Shown: positions 46,358 to 59,309 of the stretch, piece after piece | How the letters are laid out: each line of letters starts with the position of its first letter | How positions within the stretch are numbered: the stretch's first letter is position 1 | IMG/VR virus record: IMGVR_UViG_3300029288_006769 | Span: 346,367 to 410,366 of that record | Strand: one strand, 5' to 3' | Origin: a virus | DNA: 64,000 nucleotides | The notes under the pieces: model-generated | What the model was told of the DNA's origin: nothing | Database searches by the model: none | The model's input: the letters and a program-made list of their open reading frames with translations, nothing else | Program-made: the position numbers and the translations under genes

Positions 46358-47365
46358 ATGGATCGTACACAATTCAGAGAATCAGTCTTTAAGCGAGACA
46401 ATAACAAGTGTGTCATGTGTGGTGCTCCTGCTGTTGATGCTCACCATATTATTGATCGTTCTCTGTTCGAAGATGGTGGTTATCATCTTGATAATGGAGT
46501 AAGTCTTTGTGCTGAGCATCATATTGAAGCAGAAGAGACAAAGATTTCTTGCAGCAAATTAAGAGAAAAAGCTTGCATTACAAAAGTTTATCTCCCAGAT
46601 TATTTTGATTTTGAAGAACAATATGACCATTGGGGAAATATAGTAAACACAAATGGTACACGTCTAAAAGGTGAACTTTTTGAACAACCTAACGTGCAAA
46701 AAGCTTTAAAAGATTCTCTCCATTTATTTCTTCCTTATTTCAAATATCAGAAAACATTTCATCTTTCAAATTCTCCTGGGCTCCAGAAAAATGACAAGAA
46801 ACTCAGAGATGAATCAGCATTTCTTGGAAAAGAAATTGTTGGCACAATAAAGATGGATGGTGAAAACACCAATATGTATCCTGATTATATTCATGCTAGG
46901 TCAATTGATTCTGTCGGGCATGAGTCAAGAACATGGGTGAAAGCGTTGCATGGGAGTATTGCATATCAAATACCACAAGGATACAGGATTTGTGGAGAGA
47001 ATCTTTTTGCAAAACATTCAATTCATTATATGCATCTTACAAGCTTTTTCAATGTGTTCTCTATTTGGAATGACAAAAATGAAGCATTGTGTTGGGATGA
47101 AACAGTAGAGTATTGCGAGCTGCTTGATTTAACTACCGTTCCTGTTTTTTATCGAGGGATTTATGATCCAGAAGCAATTACGAAAGCCTTCGAAAAGTAT
47201 TGTAATGAGAGTAAAGATCTTGTCGAAGGTTATGTGATAAGAACTTCAGGGGTTATACATTTTTCTAAATTCAGAAAGAACGTAGCCAAATGGGTGAGAA
47301 AAGGCCACGTTCAAACTGAACATAATTGGATGCAACAAAAAGTAATACCGAATAAAATATCTTAA
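46358..47365 (+). CDS. HNH domain fused to RNA ligase (Rnl2-like nucleotidyltransferase)
   Basis: RD..KCVMCG..DAHHI..NGVSLC..HH (HNH); KTFHL..SPG, KMDGEN, CGEN, EGYVIR, AKWVR (ligase motifs). Confidence 0.82.
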   Translation: MDRTQFRESVFKRDNNKCVMCGAPAVDAHHIIDRSLFEDGGYHLDNGVSLCAEHHIEAEETKISCSKLREKACITKVYLPDYFDFEEQYDHWGNIVNTNGTRLKGELFEQPNVQKALKDSLHLFLPYFKYQKTFHLSNSPGLQKNDKKLRDESAFLGKEIVGTIKMDGENTNMYPDYIHARSIDSVGHESRTWVKALHGSIAYQIPQGYRICGENLFAKHSIHYMHLTSFFNVFSIWNDKNEALCWDETVEYCELLDLTTVPVFYRGIYDPEAITKAFEKYCNESKDLVEGYVIRTSGVIHFSKFRKNVAKWVRKGHVQTEHNWMQQKVIPNKIS

Positions 47366-47748
47366 TCCTCTTGACCTTTTTGGTCCCAATCAAGAAGTTC
47401 CACAGTTTGACCACTTAGTTCATGAGTACTATCTGGTAGAAATTGAATTTTTCCATCAGTTATAAAACTGTGACAAATTATTTGCTTGCAACCAACAGCT
47501 TTATTGTTTTCAAAAACCCAAGTACTCGGATCTCCTGGTGGGTTTTTTACATGTTTGGTTAAAATAGAAGCTCTAATTGTTGGTTTTTCTCTATCACCAT
47601 TCCAAGTCCATACAGGTCCTTTAGGGACAGTGTCTGTTAAGGCTTGTGCAGGTGTAAAACCACTTGTAGAAAACCAATGAGCACAATTACAACCTGGACA
47701 AAGAAAGAAATACACGCCTTGCTGTGCAGAATCATTTATTTTACTCAT
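47362..47748 (-). CDS. DUF6527-like protein
   Basis: CPGC..H..WTWNGD..PT..SIL..CHSFITDGKIQFL.DSTH. Confidence 0.7.
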   Translation of the reverse strand: MSKINDSAQQGVYFFLCPGCNCAHWFSTSGFTPAQALTDTVPKGPVWTWNGDREKPTIRASILTKHVKNPPGDPSTWVFENNKAVGCKQIICHSFITDGKIQFLPDSTHELSGQTVELLDWDQKGQED

Positions 47749-48788
47749 GAATCCAACCTTTTTGTTTTAATGATTTTGTAAAGAATTTCTACTATTTCAG
47801 CATCAAAAAGAATTCCACGTCCATCAAATAAAATTTGCAAAGCATATTCTATGTCTTGTGCTTTTCTATAAGGTCTATTTGAAACCAATGCATTGAAAGT
47901 GTCAGCAACAGCAAGAATACGAGCACCAGCAGGAATAGCTTTTTCTTTTAGTTTATGGGGATAACCTTCACCATTCCAACGTTCATGGTGATGCAAAACA
48001 TAATCACTTATTTTCCCAACAGCATCAACGGGCTTAATGATTTTATATGACATTTCTGAATGATGTTTGATGAGTTCATATTCTTCATCTGACAATTTGT
48101 CTTTCTTAAAAAGTATTTCATCCCTTATTCCGATTTTTCCAATGTCATGTAGTCTGCCAGCTATAGTAACATCTTCAATAAAGTTTGAGTCATCAGAATA
48201 TTCCCAACAAATTTTCTCTGAGAGTTCACCTACCATTTCTGAATGGTTTTTTGTGTACTCATCTTTTTGTTCTAGAGCATTTGTCAATGCTGTCAAAGTA
48301 TTAAAGAAAATTTTATCTCTCTCTTTTTGAATTGCAACTATTTTTGTACGCAGGTTTTCTGCTAGATGTGTGTTTCTCCTTAGATTCCTTGTATTACGAG
48401 AAGCTTGTAACAGTAACAAACCTAAAGTCATGAGTTGAAAAGGTTTACTCAAAAATGCATATATATTCTTTTTTATAATTGTAGTAATAAATTGATCTGT
48501 GTTGTAACCTGTAGTTAAAATAATTGTCAATTCAGGGTCAATTCCACTAGCTTGATCTATAAAATCAAACCCAGAGCAACCATTGTCAAGGCAAATATCG
48601 CAAAGAGCTACATCAAATTGATGAGCTTCTATAAGTTCTATTGCTTTAGGTAATGATTCAGCAACAAAGCAATGACCTCCATGATTGTCGACAAACAATT
48701 TGAGAACATCTAACTCTGTACGATCATCATCAATGACAAGCACAGTCAGATTCATCAAAAAGGGCGTGTGCTGAATTGAACTTGGCAT
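47745..48788 (-). CDS. Response regulator with HD-GYP phosphodiesterase (RpfG-like)
   Basis: REC: VIDDD..CDI..TG..SKPF; HD-GYP: YTKNHS, LHDIGK, HHERWNGEGYP, RPYR. Confidence 0.92.
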   Translation of the reverse strand: MPSSIQHTPFLMNLTVLVIDDDRTELDVLKLFVDNHGGHCFVAESLPKAIELIEAHQFDVALCDICLDNGCSGFDFIDQASGIDPELTIILTTGYNTDQFITTIIKKNIYAFLSKPFQLMTLGLLLLQASRNTRNLRRNTHLAENLRTKIVAIQKERDKIFFNTLTALTNALEQKDEYTKNHSEMVGELSEKICWEYSDDSNFIEDVTIAGRLHDIGKIGIRDEILFKKDKLSDEEYELIKHHSEMSYKIIKPVDAVGKISDYVLHHHERWNGEGYPHKLKEKAIPAGARILAVADTFNALVSNRPYRKAQDIEYALQILFDGRGILFDAEIVEILYKIIKTKRLDS

Positions 48789-51700
48789 TATTTTGTCCTT
48801 TTAAGTTCTTCTGCTATGATAGTATTTGTCGAGTCTAACGCCACAGCTTTTGTTATATATTCAGTATAAGTTTTGATTTCGCCATTAAATTTACAAATCA
48901 TTCCAAGCCCATAATATGACATAGCATATTTCGGATCTATTGAAATAGCTTTATTGTAATACTCTCTTGCTGTTTCGTTGTCTTTTTTCAACATATAGAT
49001 GTCAGCTCTTTTACAAATTGCTGGAGCATATCTAGAATCAACATAAGAAACCATTTTGCAATATTCCAAAGCATCATCAAGATTGCCTTGCTCAATTTTG
49101 ATTTGAGCTAAGAACATCATTAAATTAATATCTTGCGGCTCTTTCTTTCTCATTTCTACAGCTATATTTTCAGCACCAGCATAATCCTTCAATTGATATA
49201 GAATTTTTGCATAGATATCTAGATTTGTAAAACTCCTGTTTATTGCAAGCAATTGTTCTGTTTCATTTTTTGCTTCATTGTATTTAGAGAATCTTTTGTA
49301 AGAGTCAATTAGATATAGTCTTATTGTTGTGTCTTTAGATTTTTGTTGTTTTGCTGTTTGCAAGAATTCAAAGCCTTCACTCGAATAGGCATCCTTCAAA
49401 TAGATTTTGCCCAGTATATATAACATATCAGGGTCAGAATTGTTTTGTGCCTTCGCCATTCGTAGATAGGCTAGACTTTCATGTAGTTCGCCTACTTCAT
49501 AACAATAGATGCCGAGTTCCTTGTTTGCATTAAAGTTCTTACTGTCTCTGCCCAAAATCTCTTTATATGTCTTTATTTCCAAAACTCTGTTGCCGTTCTG
49601 TTTGTAGCAATATGCTAGTTTTGAAAGCATATCTACTGAAATAGTGTCTTTCAATGCTTTTGTTTTTTCAAAGTTATACTGAGCTCTCTTATAATCCCCA
49701 AGCTTGAAATAAATTCCACTTAGTCTTTCATAGTTTCTATAATCATAATAGAATCTTTTTGTATTGGCTACATAGATGTCTTTTGCAAGATTGACATGTA
49801 GCTGTTCTTGTAATCTTCCCATGTGGTAGAAATATGTAGAATCTCTAGTATTGATTTGACAATAGAGTTTATAGAACTTGATTGCTTTTTCTATATTTTT
49901 CAAATTTTCATGAGAAACAGCTATGAGTCTATAAACTTCAGCTATTCTAGAATAACTGTTGAATTTCGTACACATAGTCAAAATTGAAATTGCATTATCA
50001 TATTCTTTAGTCATGAAAAGCGCTCTGCCATATATAAAACTTTGATCAGCATTGCCTATAATATTTGCTAGAGCAAAGTATTTTACTGCTGACTTGTAGT
50101 CTTCTTTTTCATAAGAGTATACTCCTACTTTTAAACTCAATTTATCATTTTTATATTTTGCAAGATAAGATTTGTACGTGCTCATTTCTAAATCTTTTTT
50201 ACCTTGTTTAAGATAAAGAGCTGCAAGGTTGAAGTATTCGTTTTTTGCTGTTTGTACAAGATTGACATATTGTTCATAAGAAGCTATTGCATTTGAAATC
50301 GCACCAGTTCTTTCTTGACAAATAGCTATTTTTAGAATAATAGGTGCCGTGATTTTTTCTTGTTGTAATTTATTGTAGACATTCAATGCTTTTGTGTAGC
50401 TCCCCATATCATAATAAGTATTAGCAAGGCTTATTATAACCAAACTATCAGCTTGTTTTGTCACTAAAGCTCTATTGCAGATTCTTATAATTTCTGAGAC
50501 ATTTTTCTTGATTATGACTACATAGCTGAAATTCTTGAGATAGTCTATTCTTGAATAAGCTAATGTCATTGTTTTGTTGTATTCTAGATAGGCATTGTCA
50601 TAATCTTTAAGTTTGAAATAGACATCAGCTAATTTTTTATGAGCATCTACATTTTGAGCATCAAGATTCAGGATCTTTTTTAGATACACAATGGAATTCT
50701 GATTGTCTTTTGCTTTCCCTAGCAATGTAACAATTTTGAAATAGTCTGTGACATTGAAAACTCTAAGTTTTTCTAATTCATAATAGTGTTTCAATGCCTG
50801 AGCGTTTTTTTCAGTTGCATAATAAGAATTTGCAAGTCTTTCTCTAGATTCTATGTCTTTAGAATCGAGTTCTACAATTTTAGTGTCTATAACAAATAGT
50901 TGTTCTTTTCTATTTGTCTCTCTATAACAAACTGCTAAATCTTTGTATTGCTCAAGGCTTGGCGTAAATTTCACAAGAATTTCAAGTTGTTCAATTGCTT
51001 TTTGATATTTCTTTTTGTCAAGAGCAATTTTATAGATTATTTCTCTGCATTTATTGGAAGCAGCTCCTTTTCTTAAAAGTGTTTCAGAAGCATCTTTTGC
51101 TTTATCATAATCTTGTTGTTTGAAAGCACAAATCGCTATTCTTTCAAGAACATCAAAATTTTCTCTAAAAATATATGTCTTTTCGTAATATTTTTGAGCT
51201 TTATCATAATTTTTGTTTTCATAATAGTAATCACCAAGTTGCAAAGCATTTTCTGGCGTATCTTTTTGTTTTGAAAGCCGAACTGCTATTTTTTTTGCTT
51301 TTGTCTTATAATTCTGTTTTTCATAAGCATCGATCAACAGGAAATACATTGGAATAGCTGATGAGTCAACTCTTAAAACTTTATTTGCATATAATTCAAT
51401 TTTAGCATAATCATTTGTAGTTGCATAGTATTGGGCTATAAGTCTATTGTATTCAAGACCTGCGTTTAACACTTCAAATTCTTTTACATATTTCAAAACA
51501 CTTACATAATCTTTCAAATTCATGTATATTTTTGCTATTTTCAATTTAAGCTGCAATGCTTGTTTGGCATCAGCTTTTTTTGTTGCTGCTTCATAAAAAG
51601 CAAGAGCTCTTGAAATATTTTTTTGTTCTTCTAAGCATTTCCCTTGATTTGTCAAATCTTCATATTGAAAACTTTGTACTTGGAGTTTATTGTACTCAAC

Positions 51701-52387
51701 AAAAGCTTCTTGGCATTGTCCTTTTGAGATATAAAGTCTAGCAAGTTTGAGTCTGTCCTCTATAGAAATATTGTTTACAGTTTTCAAATACAATAATGAA
51801 GAATCAGATTGACCAAGAGCCGCATAACATAATGAAAGACGGAGTGCAATTGCATCATCTTTTTTAAGTGAATATTGTTTCAATAAATAGGGAATAGCTT
51901 GTTTATACAATTTTCTTTCATAGTAAATTGTGCCCAATGCTTCTTTAGCTTCTTTTGTTGTTCTAATTTTTTCGAACCATTTTTGGGCCTCATCATACCT
52001 TCTAATTTTGTAACAGATACTAGCATGTTGAAGTTTGTAACTTTCAGTAATTGAGTCTTTTTGTACGCATTTAGAAGAGAATTCATAAGCTCTTTCGCAA
52101 AGACCGATTTTACAATAGACTCTAGCAAGAGAAGTTAGAACAAGACAATTAGAAGGATAAAGTCTATATAAAGACAGATAGCAAGCAATTGCTTTTTCAT
52201 CAAAGCCGAGATTTTCATGTGCAAAACCATAAGCATAAGTAGTTTCTTCGTCTTGCACTTTATAGTTTGTCTCAATATATTTGATAACTTGCTTATAATC
52301 TTTTTTAAAAAGAAGACCATCAAGTTTCTTGTCGGCAAAACTTGCAATAGCGACTAAGAAAATCAAGAAAAATTTTAATGTTTTCAT
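48788..52387 (-). CDS. Large TPR-repeat protein with signal peptide
   Basis: Start MKTLKFFLIFLVAIASFA (Sec signal) at 52387 with GGAGG RBS; TPR-like helical repeats throughout. Confidence 0.85.
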   Translation of the reverse strand: MKTLKFFLIFLVAIASFADKKLDGLLFKKDYKQVIKYIETNYKVQDEETTYAYGFAHENLGFDEKAIACYLSLYRLYPSNCLVLTSLARVYCKIGLCERAYEFSSKCVQKDSITESYKLQHASICYKIRRYDEAQKWFEKIRTTKEAKEALGTIYYERKLYKQAIPYLLKQYSLKKDDAIALRLSLCYAALGQSDSSLLYLKTVNNISIEDRLKLARLYISKGQCQEAFVEYNKLQVQSFQYEDLTNQGKCLEEQKNISRALAFYEAATKKADAKQALQLKLKIAKIYMNLKDYVSVLKYVKEFEVLNAGLEYNRLIAQYYATTNDYAKIELYANKVLRVDSSAIPMYFLLIDAYEKQNYKTKAKKIAVRLSKQKDTPENALQLGDYYYENKNYDKAQKYYEKTYIFRENFDVLERIAICAFKQQDYDKAKDASETLLRKGAASNKCREIIYKIALDKKKYQKAIEQLEILVKFTPSLEQYKDLAVCYRETNRKEQLFVIDTKIVELDSKDIESRERLANSYYATEKNAQALKHYYELEKLRVFNVTDYFKIVTLLGKAKDNQNSIVYLKKILNLDAQNVDAHKKLADVYFKLKDYDNAYLEYNKTMTLAYSRIDYLKNFSYVVIIKKNVSEIIRICNRALVTKQADSLVIISLANTYYDMGSYTKALNVYNKLQQEKITAPIILKIAICQERTGAISNAIASYEQYVNLVQTAKNEYFNLAALYLKQGKKDLEMSTYKSYLAKYKNDKLSLKVGVYSYEKEDYKSAVKYFALANIIGNADQSFIYGRALFMTKEYDNAISILTMCTKFNSYSRIAEVYRLIAVSHENLKNIEKAIKFYKLYCQINTRDSTYFYHMGRLQEQLHVNLAKDIYVANTKRFYYDYRNYERLSGIYFKLGDYKRAQYNFEKTKALKDTISVDMLSKLAYCYKQNGNRVLEIKTYKEILGRDSKNFNANKELGIYCYEVGELHESLAYLRMAKAQNNSDPDMLYILGKIYLKDAYSSEGFEFLQTAKQQKSKDTTIRLYLIDSYKRFSKYNEAKNETEQLLAINRSFTNLDIYAKILYQLKDYAGAENIAVEMRKKEPQDINLMMFLAQIKIEQGNLDDALEYCKMVSYVDSRYAPAICKRADIYMLKKDNETAREYYNKAISIDPKYAMSYYGLGMICKFNGEIKTYTEYITKAVALDSTNTIIAEELKRTK

Positions 52388-52609
52388 ATTCCCTCCCATT
52401 GTTATGGGCAGCAAAAAAACATCCAGAACAACTTTTGAATTAATCAATGTTCCAGAAATCGTCAAGTTAATTTAATTTTGATAGGAAGGAATTTAATTGA
52501 GAGTAAATCAAATCTATCTAACCAACAAATATCTACCCTTATCCTTATATTATAGATTATACCACCTTATTGGTTTAAAATGAAAATAAAAAATATTTTT
52601 TAAAAATAA

Positions 52610-52639
52610 TTGTTACTTTTGCTAACTTTGATATATATT
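52610..52639 (+). promoter_or_regulatory. Possible sigma70-type promoter for the ncRNA array
   Basis: TTGTTA-18 nt-TATATT, ending 7 nt before unit 1. Confidence 0.35.
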
Positions 52640-52646
52640 TATTCTA

Positions 52647-52787
52647 GAACAAATGCTCTTTAACAGCAAGTGCTTACATTACTTTGTAGCTCAGCTGGTA
52701 GAGCGATTGCCTATTAAGCGATAAGTCTCAGGTTCGAATCCTGAAAAAGTAGCCAAAAACTAGCATTTACAACTCGAGCATTTGTTC
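52647..52787 (+). ncRNA. Scaffolded tRNA-like RNA unit 1 (Y RNA-like); normal-order Asn-like domain, ATT anticodon
   Basis: 12 bp outer stem GAACAAATGCTC/GAGCATTTGTTC; scaffold TTTAAC..GTGCTTACAT / TAGCAT..AACTC; 76 nt cloverleaf 52680-52755 ending GCCA. Confidence 0.8.
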
Positions 52788-52809
52788 ATTTCAAATTGAA
52801 AATAAATTT

Positions 52810-52966
52810 TTAAAACTGCTCTTTAACATCGGGTGCTTACATGGATATAACTTTAGTTCACCAAACCGAAGTTTGACGTTCGATTCGTCATTCCCCCGCT
52901 AAGAAAATATGTGTTTTCTTGGTGGGGGAAAGTAAAAAATAGCATACGTAACTCGAGCAGTTTTAA
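52810..52966 (+). ncRNA. Scaffolded tRNA-like RNA unit 2; permuted, opened in the D arm
   Basis: 12 bp outer stem TTAAAACTGCTC/GAGCAGTTTTAA; order: D 3' half, anticodon-like arm, T arm (TGACG-TTCGATT-CGTCA), acceptor closed by a long hairpin. Confidence 0.75.
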
Positions 52967-52979
52967 TTTTGAAAAATAA

Positions 52980-53115
52980 ACAAGTGTTCTTTAACTCTAA
53001 GTGCTTACATGCTTTTAAGCTCAATTGGTAGAGCAATTGTTATTGGAACAATTCGTTCTTGGTTCAAATCCAGGAAAAGCGACCAAAAAATAGCATTTAT
53101 AACTCGAACACTTGT
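52980..53115 (+). ncRNA. Scaffolded tRNA-like RNA unit 3; normal-order domain, TTG at anticodon position
   Basis: 10 bp outer stem ACAAGTGTTC/GAACACTTGT; 76 nt cloverleaf 53010-53085 ending ACCA. Confidence 0.8.
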
Positions 53116-53134
53116 CTTTTAAATAAGGAAAAAA

Positions 53135-53285
53135 TAAGTCATGTCTTTTAACCTTGGAAGCTTACATTTTTTTCGTCAGTTCAAATCTGACTGCTCCACC
53201 GGCGGTGGAGTATGGCCGAGTGGTTTAAGGCACCCAACTGCTAATTGGACAAAGAAAACAGCTCTCAGAACTCAGACATGACTTA
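53135..53285 (+). ncRNA. Scaffolded tRNA-like RNA unit 4; permuted tRNA-Ser(GCT), opened at the variable arm
   Basis: 12 bp outer stem TAAGTCATGTCT/AGACATGACTTA; order: T arm, loop-closed acceptor, D arm GCCGAGTGGTTTAAGGC, anticodon loop CTGCTAA. Confidence 0.8.
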
Positions 53286-53307
53286 AATTTTAAAATTCAC
53301 GATGAAG

Positions 53308-53343
53308 AAGAGGGCTCAATCAAAAGAGCCCTCTTTTGTTTTT
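53308..53343 (+). terminator. Rho-independent terminator closing the ncRNA array
   Basis: AAGAGGGCTC-AATCAAAA-GAGCCCTCTT followed by TTGTTTTT. Confidence 0.8.
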
Positions 53344-53413
53344 AGCATTATTTTTAGAATTTTACAAGTTAAAATATAGAAATAGAGCAACAAGCAAAAG
53401 AAAGGAATGAACT

Positions 53414-53665
53414 ATGTCAACGATCCATGTTGTTTACGGCGGAAGAAATGAAGATCTTGAGTTTGACGAAGTGTTCAGACCAGATAGACATGAAGCTCTG
53501 GGAGTAACAAATCCTGAACCAAGAAATATGACACCAGAAATTGTAAAACGAGCTTTAGCAAATCATTATGATGTGAATCAAAATGAATTTGAAGCTCATT
53601 TTGTCGAAATCAACTCGAACGGAAATATCACCGTACGTCCCAATGCGAGATGGGGAGGTCATTAA
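53414..53665 (+). CDS. Ubiquitin-like (beta-grasp) protein
   Basis: 83 aa ending NITVRPNARWGG-H; same operon as JAB and ThiF. Confidence 0.7.
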   Translation: MSTIHVVYGGRNEDLEFDEVFRPDRHEALGVTNPEPRNMTPEIVKRALANHYDVNQNEFEAHFVEINSNGNITVRPNARWGGH

Positions 53666-53666
53666 A

Positions 53667-55217
53667 ATGACAACTATGGTAAAAAAAGAACAAGACATCA
53701 GGGTTAAAATCCTCAACTCATTTATGACCTGTCCTCATCGAGACACGGGTGAATTGCAAAAAATTCATGCAGAAATGAGAGAGAAAGATCCTGTGTTCTA
53801 TGCACATCTTGCTGCATGGTACAAAAAGAATGGTGATCTTCGTGATCATAATGAAGTTTTCACAGCCATGTTGATCACAGATCCTTTCTTGGACAATCGC
53901 GAAACAGGTATTGCTCTTTTTCAAAATCAAGCTCCCTTTATGAAAATCAAAATTCTCAGTTTCATTAAAGGGAAGAAAATCACTCTGAGGGAAAAGACGG
54001 GTGAACAAGTCAAACGCGGAAAGAAAATGATTGATGAGATCAAAAATTCTAAGAAACAAGTTGGTCTTATCAAAAATATCCCAAACATACTTCGAACTGA
54101 AATCGAAAGATATGTTCGTTGGCTTGAAAAAGACAATGATAGATTTGATTCTGTTGCTCTGACAAATTTCAATGATTTGAAATCTTTTTATGCAGGTAAA
54201 GGTGTTCAGATCAAACCTTGTCCAAGAGCACAACAAATCCTGTTTGAAGAAAAATTTCCTGAAGATAGCAAACTTACTGTTTTCAAACAAATCAGAGAAG
54301 CTGATACGCCTGAGAAAGCAGCCAATCTGATGGTGCAACATAAAATTCCTTACACTATTGCAGTAGGTTTGAGAGATAAAATTACGCCATCTATTTTGAT
54401 TGCTTTGATCAATAACATGACTGCTCAGGAAATTATTACAAACATTGCTTCTTTGCAAGAAAAAGGTGCAATGGATAATCCTGGAACAAAAAAATTGATC
54501 ACAGAAAAACTTGAAGCAGCAAAAACAGCAAAGAATGTAACTGCTCTCAAATCCAAAAGAGCTAAGCAGACAGGAAGAGTCAAAGACGAAACTGTTCTCA
54601 AGCAGTTGGATGAAATTGCTGATAAGCAAATCAAAAAATCTGGGTCAATCAAAGTTTCTACTGGGTTGCTCATTGACAGATCAGGTTCTATGGATGTTGC
54701 AATTCAAGTTGGAAAACAGATTGCTGCAACAATTTGTGGTTCAATGGAAGCTGATTTGTTCGGTGTCGCATTTGATACTATGGCACAAGCTGTTAAAGCA
54801 AGTGAAAATACATTAACTGCTTGGGAAAAAGCATTTGCGCCAATCCATGCAAGCGGTAGAACTTCAGTTGGTTGTGCTCTTGATTTCATGATCAGGTATA
54901 AATTATATGCTGAACAGCTCATTATTGTGACTGATGAGGATGAAAACCAGAATCCACGATTTGCTGATGTATTTCCAAAGTATGTACAGGAAATGAAAGT
55001 AACTCCTGCAATTATTATCGTAAGAGTAGGTGACAAAAAAACTGGACTCAGTACTTCGCTTAAAAACGCAGGAATTTCTTTTGATTCATATGAACCATCA
55101 GGAAATGACTACTATGGACTTTCAGGTCTGATACCTTTGCTTTCTCGTAAATCAAAGTTAGACCTTGTTTATGAAATTATGGACTTTCCACTTCCGATTC
55201 GAAAGTCTTATGTCTAA
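53667..55217 (+). CDS. Ro60/TROVE-like helical domain plus C-terminal vWA
   Basis: vWA MIDAS IDRSGSM..GRTS..VTDEDEN; N-terminal DPVFYAHLAAWY..LRD and LINNMTAQEIITNIASL resemble TROVE segments; adjacent tRNA-like RNAs. Confidence 0.7.
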   Translation: MTTMVKKEQDIRVKILNSFMTCPHRDTGELQKIHAEMREKDPVFYAHLAAWYKKNGDLRDHNEVFTAMLITDPFLDNRETGIALFQNQAPFMKIKILSFIKGKKITLREKTGEQVKRGKKMIDEIKNSKKQVGLIKNIPNILRTEIERYVRWLEKDNDRFDSVALTNFNDLKSFYAGKGVQIKPCPRAQQILFEEKFPEDSKLTVFKQIREADTPEKAANLMVQHKIPYTIAVGLRDKITPSILIALINNMTAQEIITNIASLQEKGAMDNPGTKKLITEKLEAAKTAKNVTALKSKRAKQTGRVKDETVLKQLDEIADKQIKKSGSIKVSTGLLIDRSGSMDVAIQVGKQIAATICGSMEADLFGVAFDTMAQAVKASENTLTAWEKAFAPIHASGRTSVGCALDFMIRYKLYAEQLIIVTDEDENQNPRFADVFPKYVQEMKVTPAIIIVRVGDKKTGLSTSLKNAGISFDSYEPSGNDYYGLSGLIPLLSRKSKLDLVYEIMDFPLPIRKSYV

Positions 55218-56055
55218 TGTTTTTGATCTTATTAAAAAAGTAGGGGAGAAAGAAGCGGCTATTCAAGAGTTTATCTCCCCTATTTTTTTTAATGAATATG
55301 TAGCCACCAAGATCGAAGGCATTGTTTATAAATTCAAAATTTCGCAAAAAACTCCAGGTTGGTATAAAATACAATCCATAGACAGAAAGACAGCAAAAAC
55401 TGTCGAACAGGCTGATCTTTCTGATATCGATACTTATTTGAAGTTTCTAACCAAGATTCGTTTTATTCTTGTAATGAAAAAGAATAACGTTTATTTTGGT
55501 ATACCCGAAAAATCAAATAATTTAAAACTTCCATTTGAGCAAATGATCCCTGTGTATCTTACTGATGATTCAGTTCAAGATTTTGACAGAGTCATTGTGC
55601 GTTTTGATGGCGCAAATTTCTGGTACCATCAATTGGATTATTCAAATGACATTTCAAAGGCATCATATTTAAGAGAGAAATTGTTGAAAGTTGTCGATTC
55701 AAAGAAAATTAATTATTCGGGTTTGACAATCGAAGAAAAAATTGCTTATACTTTAAGAGTTACACTTGATAAAAAACTTGTAATTGACAAAAAGAAGACA
55801 TCTCTTAAAGATGATGTTGAACATGCTGGTGGCGAATTTATAAAATTTACGGAAAAAAGCGACCATTTCAGCGTAACTTATATTGTCGATGGACAACAAT
55901 ATACAAGCCATGTGAGTAAAAACGAAAGTCATAGCGTAATAACTGCTGGAATTTGTTTGTCTGGTGAAGATAGAAAATATGATTTAAAAAGTCTTATAAC
56001 AGTTATGAGAGAGGGTCAGCATGCAGGAAGAATCCATAGAACTCACAACTTTTAA
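55210..56055 (+). CDS. Conserved hypothetical protein, candidate divergent E2-like conjugating enzyme
   Basis: Single Cys, in the C-terminal AGICLSG..DLKSLITVMR, resembling the E2 GxICL active-site context; lies between Ubl/vWA and JAB. Confidence 0.45.
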   Translation: MSNVFDLIKKVGEKEAAIQEFISPIFFNEYVATKIEGIVYKFKISQKTPGWYKIQSIDRKTAKTVEQADLSDIDTYLKFLTKIRFILVMKKNNVYFGIPEKSNNLKLPFEQMIPVYLTDDSVQDFDRVIVRFDGANFWYHQLDYSNDISKASYLREKLLKVVDSKKINYSGLTIEEKIAYTLRVTLDKKLVIDKKKTSLKDDVEHAGGEFIKFTEKSDHFSVTYIVDGQQYTSHVSKNESHSVITAGICLSGEDRKYDLKSLITVMREGQHAGRIHRTHNF

Positions 56056-56434
56056 AGAAAGATGCTGGACATTATACGGTTTTAAAATTGGAAAATTTAT
56101 TTTCGGTTGGCTTAAATATTTGGATGAAGGTGAAGAGTTTGCTGTAGAATTTGATTGGCGAAAAGGTTTGTCAAAATTTATCATCGGGTGGTTTCATACC
56201 CATCCAACTACGGTTACTTTGAATCCAAGCAAAGAAGACAAAAAAACAATGCGTTCTTGGGTTAGAACTTTAGAACGCCCATTGATTTGTGGGATCATGT
56301 ATGACCATAAAAAAAGAAGAGAATTTCTTTGGAGAAATTGTTATTTATTTAAACGTTGGCCTGGCGGCAATGTGAACTACCAACCAATTATGAGAGATAA
56401 ACTAATCAAACATTTTTATATTGGAATTCTATGA
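56021..56434 (+). CDS. JAB/MPN metalloprotease
   Basis: IIGWFHTHP..PSKED (HxH-x7-S-x2-D). Confidence 0.85.
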   Translation: MQEESIELTTFKERCWTLYGFKIGKFIFGWLKYLDEGEEFAVEFDWRKGLSKFIIGWFHTHPTTVTLNPSKEDKKTMRSWVRTLERPLICGIMYDHKKRREFLWRNCYLFKRWPGGNVNYQPIMRDKLIKHFYIGIL

Positions 56435-56562
56435 AAAATAAAGGGTTCAAAAAAGAAACTCCTGAAGATGTTATTAACTGGCTTGCTTCTATGAAAATAA
56501 AGGTGCATTATTTAATAAAAAGCTCAGGAAAAAATTAGAAAAAAGAAAGAAAAAAATGAGCA

Positions 56563-56799
56563 TTGTCTAAATTTCCTTATAATGTCTATGCAACAAAAGA
56601 AAAAGTGTATATAGAAAAGAAAACAGGATGTGCAGCTCGCTTATGTTCTATATCTGCCGAATTTTATGACAGTAACGAAAAACAGGAAATAATTTTGGAA
56701 TGTTCATTTAAAAAATTCCAAGAGAAAGCTATGTCAAGAGGATATATAGTACTTGATAAATTCAGACCTGCATGGGATATTGAAAGAGAGATAAAATGA
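56563..56799 (+). CDS. Hypothetical protein
   Basis: 78 aa, coupled to ThiF start. Confidence 0.5.
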   Translation: MSKFPYNVYATKEKVYIEKKTGCAARLCSISAEFYDSNEKQEIILECSFKKFQEKAMSRGYIVLDKFRPAWDIEREIK

Positions 56800-57428
56800 G
56801 TACTTTCAAACATGAAGAACTATATCGGGAAAAAGTATTATTCGAAATGATGTCAAAATTTTCTATTACTATGTGTGGTGCTGGAGCTATAGGTTCTAAT
56901 CTTGTCGATAATTTGATCCGTCAAGGCTTCAAAAAAATTTCCGTAATAGATTTTGACAGAGTTGAAGATGGAAATAGACATACACAAATATGGAGCTCAA
57001 GAGAGATTGGACAGCTTAAAGTAACAGCATTAAGAAATAGAATGTTTGAAGTTCTCAATACGCAAATTACTGCAATTTCTAAAAAACTTGATAAATCAAA
57101 TCTTAATCTTATAGAGCCTTCAAGTTTAGTTATTGATGGCTTTGACAATGTACCAAGTAGAAAATTGATAACAGAATATTGTAAAGAAAATAACATTGAT
57201 TGTTTGCATATTGGTTTGTTCCAAGATTATGCTGAAATAATCTGGAACGAAAAATACAGAGTGCCTGATGAAGTAACTAATATGGATATATGTGAATATC
57301 CTTTAGCAAGGAATATAATTTTGTTGGCTATTGCTGTAGCGACAGAGATATTAATAGCATATTTAGAAACAGGTGAAAAGCGTAATTTCGTGATAACTTT
57401 AAAAGACTTCAAAATTTCGAGAATATAA
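56796..57428 (+). CDS. ThiF/E1-like adenylyltransferase
   Basis: CGAGAIGS, IDFDRVEDGNRHTQ, IGQLKV, IDGFDN..SR; candidate catalytic Cys in DICEYP. Confidence 0.88.
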   Translation: MSTFKHEELYREKVLFEMMSKFSITMCGAGAIGSNLVDNLIRQGFKKISVIDFDRVEDGNRHTQIWSSREIGQLKVTALRNRMFEVLNTQITAISKKLDKSNLNLIEPSSLVIDGFDNVPSRKLITEYCKENNIDCLHIGLFQDYAEIIWNEKYRVPDEVTNMDICEYPLARNIILLAIAVATEILIAYLETGEKRNFVITLKDFKISRI

Positions 57429-57940
57429 TGGATATTTGGTTCAATATGTTGATCGGTATTCCCGGTTCTGGGAAATCTACTTGGCTAAACATACAACCTC
57501 GAAAAACTTATGTTGTCTGTCCTGATTCAATACGATTATATTTAACTGGTGATATTTCAAATCATAGTCAAGAAGAGACTGTTTGGAATATTGCAAAATA
57601 CACAACACGTTGGGCTTTAGTAAATAATATTTCAATAACATTTGATGCAACTAACACAAGTACATTTTTAAGAAGAGACTTTCTTGGGGCTCTTCCTCTT
57701 CAAGTATCGGATTTTAAACGCAAAGCAATTCTTTTTCCTACAGACCCAAATGTGGCTGTTTCAAGAGTTAATGCTAGAACATTTGGCTCAAAAGTTCCAC
57801 CAGAAAAAATATTTCAATCACATCTATTGTTTCAGCAAACTTTGAAAGATATTTTAGATGAAGATTGGGACTGTATAGAAACGATAGGAGACTCAAATGG
57901 CGGAAAAACTGTTAAAATCCCGGAAAGTGTCAGGACCTGA
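57428..57940 (+). CDS. P-loop kinase, polynucleotide-kinase-like (AAA_33)
   Basis: LIGIPGSGKST, CPDSIR, FDATN..R, RVNAR..VP. Confidence 0.8.
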   Translation: MDIWFNMLIGIPGSGKSTWLNIQPRKTYVVCPDSIRLYLTGDISNHSQEETVWNIAKYTTRWALVNNISITFDATNTSTFLRRDFLGALPLQVSDFKRKAILFPTDPNVAVSRVNARTFGSKVPPEKIFQSHLLFQQTLKDILDEDWDCIETIGDSNGGKTVKIPESVRT

Positions 57941-59309
57941 AAACGATGGTTTTACAGAAACAGTAAAACATAAAGTTTTATTCTGCGGCAACCCTGAAGG
58001 AAACAACAACAAGTTCTATTCAATAGAGCTTCAAAAAAATTCTAAAGGTCAATATCGGTTATTTACTCATTATGGCCGTCTCGGAAAAACCGATGTTTAT
58101 GAAGTCCGCGATGAATACCTCGGTAGACCTCTCGATCTTTCAACAGCAGATCGTGAATTTGAAGTTATCCTCGCTTCAAAACTCAAAGGCAAGAAAAAAG
58201 AAAGCGAACTCGGTGGAAACCGTGTTGAAAAATATGAATTGGTCGAGACATTCGCACCCACGGTTGGCTCTGTCAATGTCCGCGGAAAAAATGTTGGCAT
58301 TACTGTTTCAGTCAAAAAAGATGATGTTGTTGACTCTTATTCCAATCCGGAAGTTGCTCGAATTATCCGTCAAATTGTCGATGAAAACATCCATACCATT
58401 TCTACATTGACAACCTTGAAACTAACATCAAATGGGTTTGAAACTCCCCTGGGTCCCGTCACAAAAGAACATGTGGCAAATGCAAGAGTCCCACTTATGT
58501 CTTTGAAATCTCTGATGGTTAATGACGAAATCAACCCCGACAATCAATTGACTCGAGATCACAATGCAAAATATTTCTCCATGATTCCCCATCCCTTTGG
58601 ACACAAAATAACAAAAGATGACTGGATTCTTTCTGCGGCAAAACTCGCCGAAGAATTCGAATTGCTTGACAACCTTGAATCAGCTGTTACAATGGGTGCC
58701 GCCATGCAAAATGCCGCACAACAAAAACGCGCTCTTGGTACAGATATCGAAATAGTTTCCGACAAAAGAGAAATTGATCGAATTTACTCCTATATTACGA
58801 CAACAAAAGCGGGAAATCATCGTGGTTCTGATGTGTGGAACTGGAAACCTAAAAACGTTTTCAAAATCAAAATACCTGCAGAAAGAGCAAGATTTGAAAA
58901 AACTGAAAAACAATTCGGTAACCAACATGAACTCTTCCATGGCTCAAAAAATGGCAATATTTTGAGTATTCTCAAGGGGGGTCTGATCATCCCTTCATGC
59001 AATGCCGGTCATGTCACAGGTCGTATGTTCGGTGATGGTATTTATTTTGCTAATGCATCGACGAAATCTCTTAATTACTCTACAGGATTTTGGGGCGGAC
59101 GTGGCAATAAAAATTCAAATTCTTTCTTATTTCTTGCAAATGTTGCTATGGGAAAAACATTTGTAGCCCATGACGCTCGGTATTCTGGAATACCACATGG
59201 ATATGACTCAATTCATGCTCAAAAAGGAAGATCGTTATATAATGACGAATTTATTGTTTTCAAATTGCAACAAGCCACTTTAACATATCTGGTTGAAATG
59301 ACCAAATAA
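57897..59309 (+). CDS. WGR-domain poly(ADP-ribose) polymerase
   Basis: NNNKFY..THYGRLG (WGR); YFSMIPH (regulatory); LFHGS, GRMFGDGIYFA, SLNY, NDEFIVF (H-Y-E triad). Confidence 0.9.
   Translation: MAEKLLKSRKVSGPENDGFTETVKHKVLFCGNPEGNNNKFYSIELQKNSKGQYRLFTHYGRLGKTDVYEVRDEYLGRPLDLSTADREFEVILASKLKGKKKESELGGNRVEKYELVETFAPTVGSVNVRGKNVGITVSVKKDDVVDSYSNPEVARIIRQIVDENIHTISTLTTLKLTSNGFETPLGPVTKEHVANARVPLMSLKSLMVNDEINPDNQLTRDHNAKYFSMIPHPFGHKITKDDWILSAAKLAEEFELLDNLESAVTMGAAMQNAAQQKRALGTDIEIVSDKREIDRIYSYITTTKAGNHRGSDVWNWKPKNVFKIKIPAERARFEKTEKQFGNQHELFHGSKNGNILSILKGGLIIPSCNAGHVTGRMFGDGIYFANASTKSLNYSTGFWGGRGNKNSNSFLFLANVAMGKTFVAHDARYSGIPHGYDSIHAQKGRSLYNDEFIVFKLQQATLTYLVEMTK

Follow-up and report, generated by a model that had tools for sequence, protein, structure and literature searches.

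Ro60 and the Y RNAs are conserved from bacteria to humans, and the role of their RNA modules is poorly understood. Genes for Y RNAs share the strand of the Ro60 gene and are no more than 4 kb away from it; in YrlA, a GNCGAA(N)G motif is combined with a tRNA-like domain whose acceptor is closed, and a common precursor is cleaved to give both YrlA and YrlB (PMC4201824). TROVE proteins have been recorded in a few jumbo phages (PMC7824862), and in Thermus phage phiLo two Y-like RNAs encoded upstream of Ro60, which were found via a CGAA motif, are bound by that protein (PMC12135203). The Class I RNAs of Dictyostelium, whose design and conserved positions have been described (PMC7919456), offer a further comparison. 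Here we analyse a 64,000-nt stretch of DNA (the window; bases 346367-410366 of the 424,144-bp, 98% complete phage record IMGVR_UViG_3300029288_006769), in which four structured RNA units stand in tandem upstream of a gene for a protein with a predicted Ro60 fold. Each unit combines a constant part, here called the handle, with a variable cargo. We put at roughly 70% the probability that the units are a diverged class of Y RNA, in which the handle binds the Ro60-like ring and the cargo mimics translation RNAs.

The array occupies 52647-53285 on the + strand, with units of 136-157 nt each. The features of the locus, and a fifth unit elsewhere in the phage, are as follows:

52610..52639, + strand: promoter-like site (weak call), just 5' of unit 1; the sole sigma-70-like match in 52350-53450
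52647..52787, + strand: unit 1, handle with a complete normal-order tRNA-like cargo at 52680-52755; outer stem 12/12
52810..52966, + strand: unit 2, handle with a hairpin, a T-arm and a long closed acceptor-like hairpin; outer stem 12/12
52980..53115, + strand: unit 3, handle with a complete tRNA-like cargo at 53010-53085; outer stem 10/10
53135..53285, + strand: unit 4, handle with a circularly permuted class II tRNA body; outer stem 12/12
53306..53346, + strand: intrinsic terminator closing the RNA array (12-bp stem, 6 of its pairs G-C, then a run of T); no second site of this kind in the region
53667..55217, + strand: Ro60-like (TROVE-fold plus vWA) protein of 516 aa with fold matches to Ro60; proposed partner of the handle
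Phage record ~179,636-179,813 (L111:1353-1531), minus strand, outside the window: unit 5, the fifth copy of the motif

Read 5' to 3', a unit consists of an outer stem (10-12 bp), an internal loop (TTTAAC/AACTC), an inner stem (7-9 bp), UACAU, the cargo and an A-rich linker, and AGC-N6-AACTC stands at a constant distance ahead of the 3' stem strand in every unit. The fourfold repetition of this scaffold had been noticed in a first-pass annotation of the window, and a motif scan agrees with the sequence: TTTAAC-N7-GCTTACAT matches exactly at 52659, 52822, 52990 and 53147, all on the + strand. Genome-wide the pattern has five copies, and a reversed control pattern has none. The outer stems had been called perfectly complementary; this is true of the flanking 12-mers of units 1, 2 and 4 (12/12 pairs each), while those of unit 3 pair at 11/12 positions, 10 of them contiguous. 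The inner stems pair as written there, but with G-U pairs and with one mismatch each in units 2 and 4. When the whole array was folded, all four outer stems appeared as separate domains in both the minimum-free-energy and the centroid structure (z = -5.7 versus shuffles). The spacers between units are short and AU-rich. Ahead of unit 1, a directly adjoining block is conserved in a syntenic locus (L013; related loci are given by such numbers), but the first hexamer of the promoter-like site is not, and shuffles yield more sigma-70-like sites than the single match found. BLASTN against phage records matched the array region to generic tRNA segments only.

The RNA structure of the units is established by covariation. 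The main set was a MAFFT alignment (A2) of 32 homologous units, in which 9 inner-stem pairs were scored. The inner stem was paired at 85.4% versus 61.7% in shuffles, with none of 500 shuffles reaching the observed value; the covariation score was 0.674 versus 0.228, slid controls gave 32-43%, and changes on both sides were seen in 8 of the 9 pairs. As loop lengths differ, this whole-unit alignment brings the inner stem into register but not the outer one; pairs were therefore counted on the inner stem only, and the outer stem was treated by anchor-based scripts. In an anchor alignment of 40 non-redundant units from 13 loci, 83% were paired versus 63%, the maximum over 2000 shuffles being 70%. 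UACA is present in 40/40 of these units and RACUY in 38/40, and the first three inner pairs are U-A, C-G and G-C, with covarying exceptions such as GCA/UGC and ACU/AGU. G-U pairs in the stems far outnumber A-C mismatches, so the structure belongs to the RNA of the + strand. When candidates were picked without an outer-stem criterion, the gene strand gave 170, of which 97 had 9/9 outer pairs, and the reverse strand gave 9. The first-pass annotation had proposed selection on RNA structure and named covariation in an expanded alignment as a check; covariation is indeed significant in both sets, of 32 and 40 homologous units. Its claim that the loop motifs are invariant is correct within this phage and its close relatives but not family-wide, where the 5' loop varies (YYNAAC, ATTAC, TCCA, CCNAC) and what stays fixed is UACA, the 3' RACUY and the first three inner pairs.

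The cargoes are tRNA-like. tRNA-like domains are found in all five phage units with their anticodon arms retained, and the point at which the handle is attached varies by unit (past the acceptor end, in the D-loop or at the variable arm). The cargo of unit 1 scores 57.4 bits against the Rfam tRNA model, ends in GCCA and has AUU in its anticodon loop; in its orthologue in L013/L139 the anticodon loop has UAA and the stem has changed in a compensatory manner. The unit 3 cargo scores 48.8 bits and ends in ACCA, CCA thus being encoded in units 1 and 3. Its anticodon loop has A at position 33 followed by UUGGA, as does the orthologue in L126, and that in L139 is shorter and related. Unit 2 carries a degenerate D-loop-permuted tRNA body. 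Its relatives in L132 and L126 retain both halves of the D-stem, and re-permutation gives a clean cloverleaf that ARAGORN calls as tRNA; the L132 copy becomes tRNA-Met(CAU). Unit 4 runs from the T-arm through an acceptor closed by a 3-nt loop and a D-arm to the anticodon arm (GCU), with the handle at the tip of the variable arm. Re-permuted, it is called tRNA-Ser(GCU) by ARAGORN, and the closed acceptor is conserved in L013 with compensatory changes. Unit 5, directly after the normal tRNA-Leu(CAA) of the phage in its main tRNA cluster, likewise has a class II body in rotated order and the handle at the variable-arm tip; it is called tRNA-Leu(CAA) after re-permutation, and it has a 32-nt insert at the acceptor and A as discriminator. 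The annotated "tRNA-Asn(AUU)" and "tRNA-Gln(UUG)" of this locus are probably not decoding tRNAs, which is a warning for annotators. We rejected the idea that the cargoes are recent copies of the phage's own tRNAs: their identity to these, 62-74%, is at the level of any tRNA pair.

In relatives the cargoes include acceptor-less tRNA bodies in which the handle replaces the acceptor, D-loop-permuted bodies and GC-rich hairpins unrelated to tRNA. One handle unit downstream of a bacterial Ro60-like gene holds a cargo that matches positions 1093-1148 of the Rfam model of bacterial 23S rRNA with 51.7 bits, and cargoes are therefore not confined to tRNA mimics. By eye, this piece is like the GTPase-associated centre (L11/thiostrepton region). 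The 23S-like cargo is seen in Nostoc linckia NIES-25 (L237:5757-5963) and in Calothrix NIES-2100 (L203:5818-5873).

The handle recurs in many genomes and is linked to the gene downstream. A loose scan of viral contigs with the 5' motif gave more than 110 stretches, nearly all of them single chance matches, with only L013 being real. A composite pattern found the same four-unit array, with compensatory stem changes, in the viral contigs L013 and L116 and in a sludge contig (L138), as well as more remote arrays in contigs from sediment and elsewhere (L126, L135, L132). True relatives have flanks that pair at 11-12/12 positions, whereas in chance matches to the motif alone in metagenomes, which have no T-loop, the flanks pair at 3-10/12, mostly 3-7. 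Loci were then gathered via the downstream Ro60-like protein, giving 23 viral loci and 80 bacterial ones. A strict finder, which asked for 9/9 outer pairs, UACA, ACYY and a minimum of 6/9 inner pairs, detected 36 units on the gene strand in 14 of 18 true phage relatives, against a background of about 1 per 100 kb (2 matches on the reverse strand over 159 kb, and 5 further weak ones on the two strands of the genome); by eye, L147, L151 and L152 also carry units. Of the 80 bacterial loci, 60 have units, with a total of 131 on the gene strand versus 4 on the reverse strand. The linkage of handle and gene holds over a protein identity range of 35-86%, and arrays hold 3-6 units. The Ro60-like protein is encoded by at least 218 bacterial species genomes and by many giant phages; culturable carriers include the cyanobacteria Nostoc linckia NIES-25, Calothrix NIES-2100, and Fischerella PCC 7414 and PCC 7521. 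We found no description of the handle or of such arrays in Rfam or in literature searches.

Four of the related loci have, in addition, hairpins in the spacers between units:

L126, 342-382 and 700-740, minus strand: spacer hairpins with covarying stems, then GGATTGAAAC
L147, 2850-2890 and 2993-3033: spacer hairpins with covarying stems, then GGATTGAAAC
L142, 2326-2366 and 2410-2450: spacer hairpins with covarying stems, then GGATTGAAAC
L145, 2155-2195 and 2337-2377: spacer hairpins with covarying stems, then GGATTGAAAC

This element resembles a Cas6-type CRISPR repeat with an 8-nt tag and may be a site of precursor processing. None is present in the array of the window itself, where a reading as a CRISPR array was also rejected, no repeat hairpin being found between the units.

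The 516-aa protein begins about 380 nt after the end of the array (53285 to 53667) on the same strand and has at least 296 close homologues. Neither Pfam TROVE, searched over the whole genome at E<=10 with control genomes that did match, nor Pfam DUF2828 matched the genome, so that the protein is not DUF2828, and phmmer found no match to it among PDB sequences. A profile built from 35 homologues had a single match, to phiLo Ro60 (E = 0.029), with which it is collinear at both ends. The AlphaFold (AF2) model of the protein has a pLDDT of 83.5 and a pTM of 0.73, and the 12 best Foldseek matches to it are all Ro60 structures, matched over the full length (E 1e-10 to 2e-8, TM 0.52-0.60). They are frog and human Ro60, Deinococcus Rsr and phiLo Ro60 (1yvp, 2nvo, 9kop and 9nfa among them). 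On this predicted model a HEAT-repeat ring is followed by a C-terminal vWA domain with a MIDAS site, whose residues D337-x-S339-x-S341 are invariant. Taken together, the Foldseek matches, the profile match and the invariant MIDAS residues lead us to read the protein as a very diverged Ro60.

Because a predicted Ro60-fold homologue lies directly downstream, the scaffold is best regarded as a diverged handle of the Y-RNA type and not as an orphan structure. The first-pass annotation had taken the invariant loops as a sequence-specific protein-binding or processing site; this view has held up, with the putative Ro60 homologue as candidate partner. The array would probably be transcribed as one precursor of about 700 nt that ends at the terminator at 53306 and would then be cut into monomers. 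In each of them the 5' and 3' ends would pair as the outer stem, isolating the unit, and the handle (internal loop, inner stem with U-A/C-G/G-C first, and unpaired UACA) would dock the Ro60-like ring protein. The variable cargo, displayed away from the handle, would mimic a tRNA or, in one bacterial cargo, a piece of 23S rRNA. Proteins specific for translation RNAs would be its targets; it would tether them, in the manner of Ro60-Y RNA-PNPase particles, or serve as a decoy or bait.

Several points weigh against the diverged Y-RNA reading. The phage units have no GNCGAA(N)G or GGUCCGA-like motif on any 5' strand, in line with the earlier judgement that they do not resemble the canonical bulged helix of Y RNAs. 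An Rfam scan of 52500-53400 at E<=10 returned no family except tRNA and no Y-RNA-type model, and the same was true of 18 related loci at gathering score; a strong match to a described Rfam family had been named as what would refute the proposed scaffold, and there is none beyond tRNA. The 516-aa protein matches no Pfam family at E<=0.01, TROVE (PF05731) included, and its assignment to Ro60 draws on a predicted fold and a marginal profile match. Since the unit finder required outer-stem pairing, the outer-stem percentages of the anchor alignment are partly a matter of construction. Unit 5 lies 219 kb from the Ro60-like gene. Finally, a shared operon with a different partner could account for the linkage; candidates are the small protein and the E1/JAB genes, which accompany the Ro60-like gene and are listed here with the other neighbours of the array:

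46358-47365, + strand: HNH-like endonuclease motif (weak, E = 0.0025) fused to an RNA ligase domain (PF09414, E = 1e-26)
47745-52465, minus strand: a TPR-repeat protein (1225 aa) and a response-regulator/HD-domain protein, close to the array on its upstream side
53414..53665, + strand: small conserved protein of 83 aa, taken for ubiquitin-like in the first-pass annotation; the first gene after the array (from the open reading frame list)
55165-59309, + strand: operon after the Ro60-like gene, with a 296-aa protein without family, a weak JAB-like protein, a ThiF/E1-like protein and a WGR-PARP protein

A similar small open reading frame follows the array in L013, L135, L132, L146, L151 and L152; the 83-aa protein itself had no Pfam match above threshold, and a search for its relatives gave none. 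The HNH-RNA-ligase fusion gene, about 5 kb upstream of the array, may have an RNA-repair function related to the tRNA theme. An E1 gene also stands near the Ro60-like gene in Nostoc (ThiF/E1, L237:6995-7645), and just upstream of that Ro60-like gene is a paralogue of ribosomal L7/L12 (L237:2886-3266; PF00542, E = 1e-24), so that the L7/L12 paralogue, the mimic of the 23S stalk region and the ThiF/E1 gene are all in one locus. The tRNA set of the phage comprises 38 ordinary tRNAs, a tmRNA and a suppressor tRNA with a CUA anticodon. The suppressor tRNA and the tmRNA (phage record 1278-1350 and 199752-200147) hint at stop-codon reassignment or a takeover of translation; the long open reading frames of the window read through under the standard code.

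Three other explanations deserve to be weighed. The units could be processing cassettes, in which leader-trailer stems are cut by an endonuclease (RNase III-type, phage or Cas6-type) to release tRNA-like RNAs and the Ro60-like gene is a mere neighbour. They do form one array with short AU-rich spacers between a promoter-like site and a terminator, their outer and inner stems add up to about 20 bp, which is the size of RNase III substrates, and the spacer hairpins followed by GGATTGAAAC in L126, L142, L145 and L147 mean that dedicated processing signals exist in the handle family. Those hairpins, however, lie outside the handle, between units, and this phage has none. The handle is also kept where nothing usable could be released from it (an acceptor closed by 3 nt, a non-tRNA hairpin), and its motif occurs in 0/38 of the ordinary phage tRNAs. 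Conserved unpaired UACA and RACUY, together with tight linkage to one protein family, suggest a stable bound structure rather than a discarded flank, and we consider release by processing unlikely as the purpose of the handle.

We regard as very improbable a second explanation, by which these are permuted or split tRNA genes whose internal loops are cut and whose products are ligated into working tRNAs (via a circular intermediate of the red-alga type, by a phage RNA ligase). It would account for the complete class II bodies in rotated order in units 4 and 5, for the 32-nt acceptor insert and the discriminator A of unit 5 and for the HNH-RNA-ligase gene about 5 kb upstream (46358-47365). Yet a loop of just 3 nt closes the acceptor of unit 4, so that no free ends can form, and this closure has been conserved through compensatory changes. 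Units 1 and 3 need no rearrangement, being in normal order, and nonetheless sit in the same handle, with anticodon loops that are non-canonical (A33) or differ between orthologues. Moreover, a bulge-helix-bulge is absent (the loops are of 6-7 and 5 nt), some relatives carry non-tRNA cargo, and normal versions of tRNA-Ser(GCU), Leu(CAA), Gln(UUG) and Asn(GUU) are in any case encoded by the phage. As for the suggestion that the units are DNA-level mobile or recombination elements with inverted repeats, which have captured tRNA genes and have no RNA-level function, we give it hardly any credence. The many G-U pairs of the stems would be A-C mismatches on the opposite strand, compensatory changes occur in both stems between distant genomes, units lie almost always on the strand of the protein gene (131 versus 4 in bacterial loci), and target-site duplications and transposase genes are absent nearby; in its favour are the tandem arrangement and the inverted repeats that border each unit.

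Preferring the diverged Y-RNA reading, we tentatively consider a broader one, for which the odds are clearly lower. The handle and the Ro60-like ring might form a general display platform for mimics of translation RNAs, which would be used as baits or decoys against tRNA- and rRNA-attacking enzymes or toxins and would be coupled to ubiquitin-like/E1/JAB genes. If this were so, tRNA bodies would be attached at every possible point, and the Nostoc/Calothrix mimic of the 23S GTPase-associated centre beside the L7/L12 paralogue would belong to the platform; bacteria would sense or absorb attacks by this means, and giant phages would blunt defences that cut tRNA. In any case, a large RNA family is defined by this locus, and the Ro60-like protein next to it escapes standard domain models. 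As a constant handle is combined with freely swapped cargo (whole tRNAs, rotated tRNAs, a piece of rRNA), the family amounts to a natural experiment on the cargo modules of Y RNAs, and since several carriers are culturable cyanobacteria, the question is directly testable.

Among known systems, the Dictyostelium Class I RNAs share with the units a short stem that joins the ends, a conserved unpaired motif after the 5' strand and a variable remainder. The 11-nt motif of Class I RNAs reads CCUUACAGCAA, and the CUUACA of the handle (UACAAACAA in distant relatives) overlaps it by about 6 nt. The units here differ in having a second, outer stem and an internal loop, and Rfam scans match them to tRNA only. 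We treat this likeness as a resemblance. Permuted tRNA genes of the Cyanidioschyzon merolae type share with units 4 and 5 the rotated order, with the 3' half of the tRNA body ahead of the 5' half, and a helix of the unit ends at the junction. In the units, however, there is no bulge-helix-bulge (loops of 6-7 and 5 nt instead of 3-4-3), a 3-nt loop closes the acceptor in unit 4 where permuted tRNA genes have one that RNase P and RNase Z can open, and normal-order and non-tRNA cargo occur in the same helix; these features therefore point to mimicry and not to a maturation pathway.

Another known system is that of Thermus phage phiLo, with its Ro60 and the RNAs Yrl1 and Yrl2 (PDB 9KOP, 9L5Y). There, too, a phage encodes a Ro60 and has Y-like RNAs directly upstream of it, and phiLo Ro60 is the closest solved protein by sequence profile and is among the top fold matches. 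The phiLo RNAs differ in being two stem-bulge-stem RNAs without tRNA bodies and without an array, and protein binding, known for phiLo, is for the present units a prediction. A further comparison is with YrlA/YrlB and Rsr/Ro60 (Chen et al. 2014, PMC4201824). Besides lacking the motifs discussed above, the phage units have a handle made of two stems with its own conserved loop and UACA, are arranged in arrays of 3-6 units, and would have a partner protein too diverged for Pfam TROVE. In YrlA the Y stem takes the place of the anticodon stem; here the anticodon arms remain, and the handle always enters the tRNA body elsewhere than at the anticodon stem: past the acceptor end, at the acceptor itself, within the D-loop or within the variable arm. 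What the two systems have in common is a position just upstream of a Ro60-type gene on the same strand, ends that pair into a terminal stem with an internal loop (as indicated here by covariation and folding), a YUAY-like element after the stem (here UUAC within GCUUACAU), and a modular design that joins a protein-binding stem, putative in our case, to a tRNA-like domain that includes a T-arm and has its acceptor closed. Finally, in both cases several RNAs are encoded per locus, and for the phage array, as for YrlA and YrlB, they would come from one precursor.
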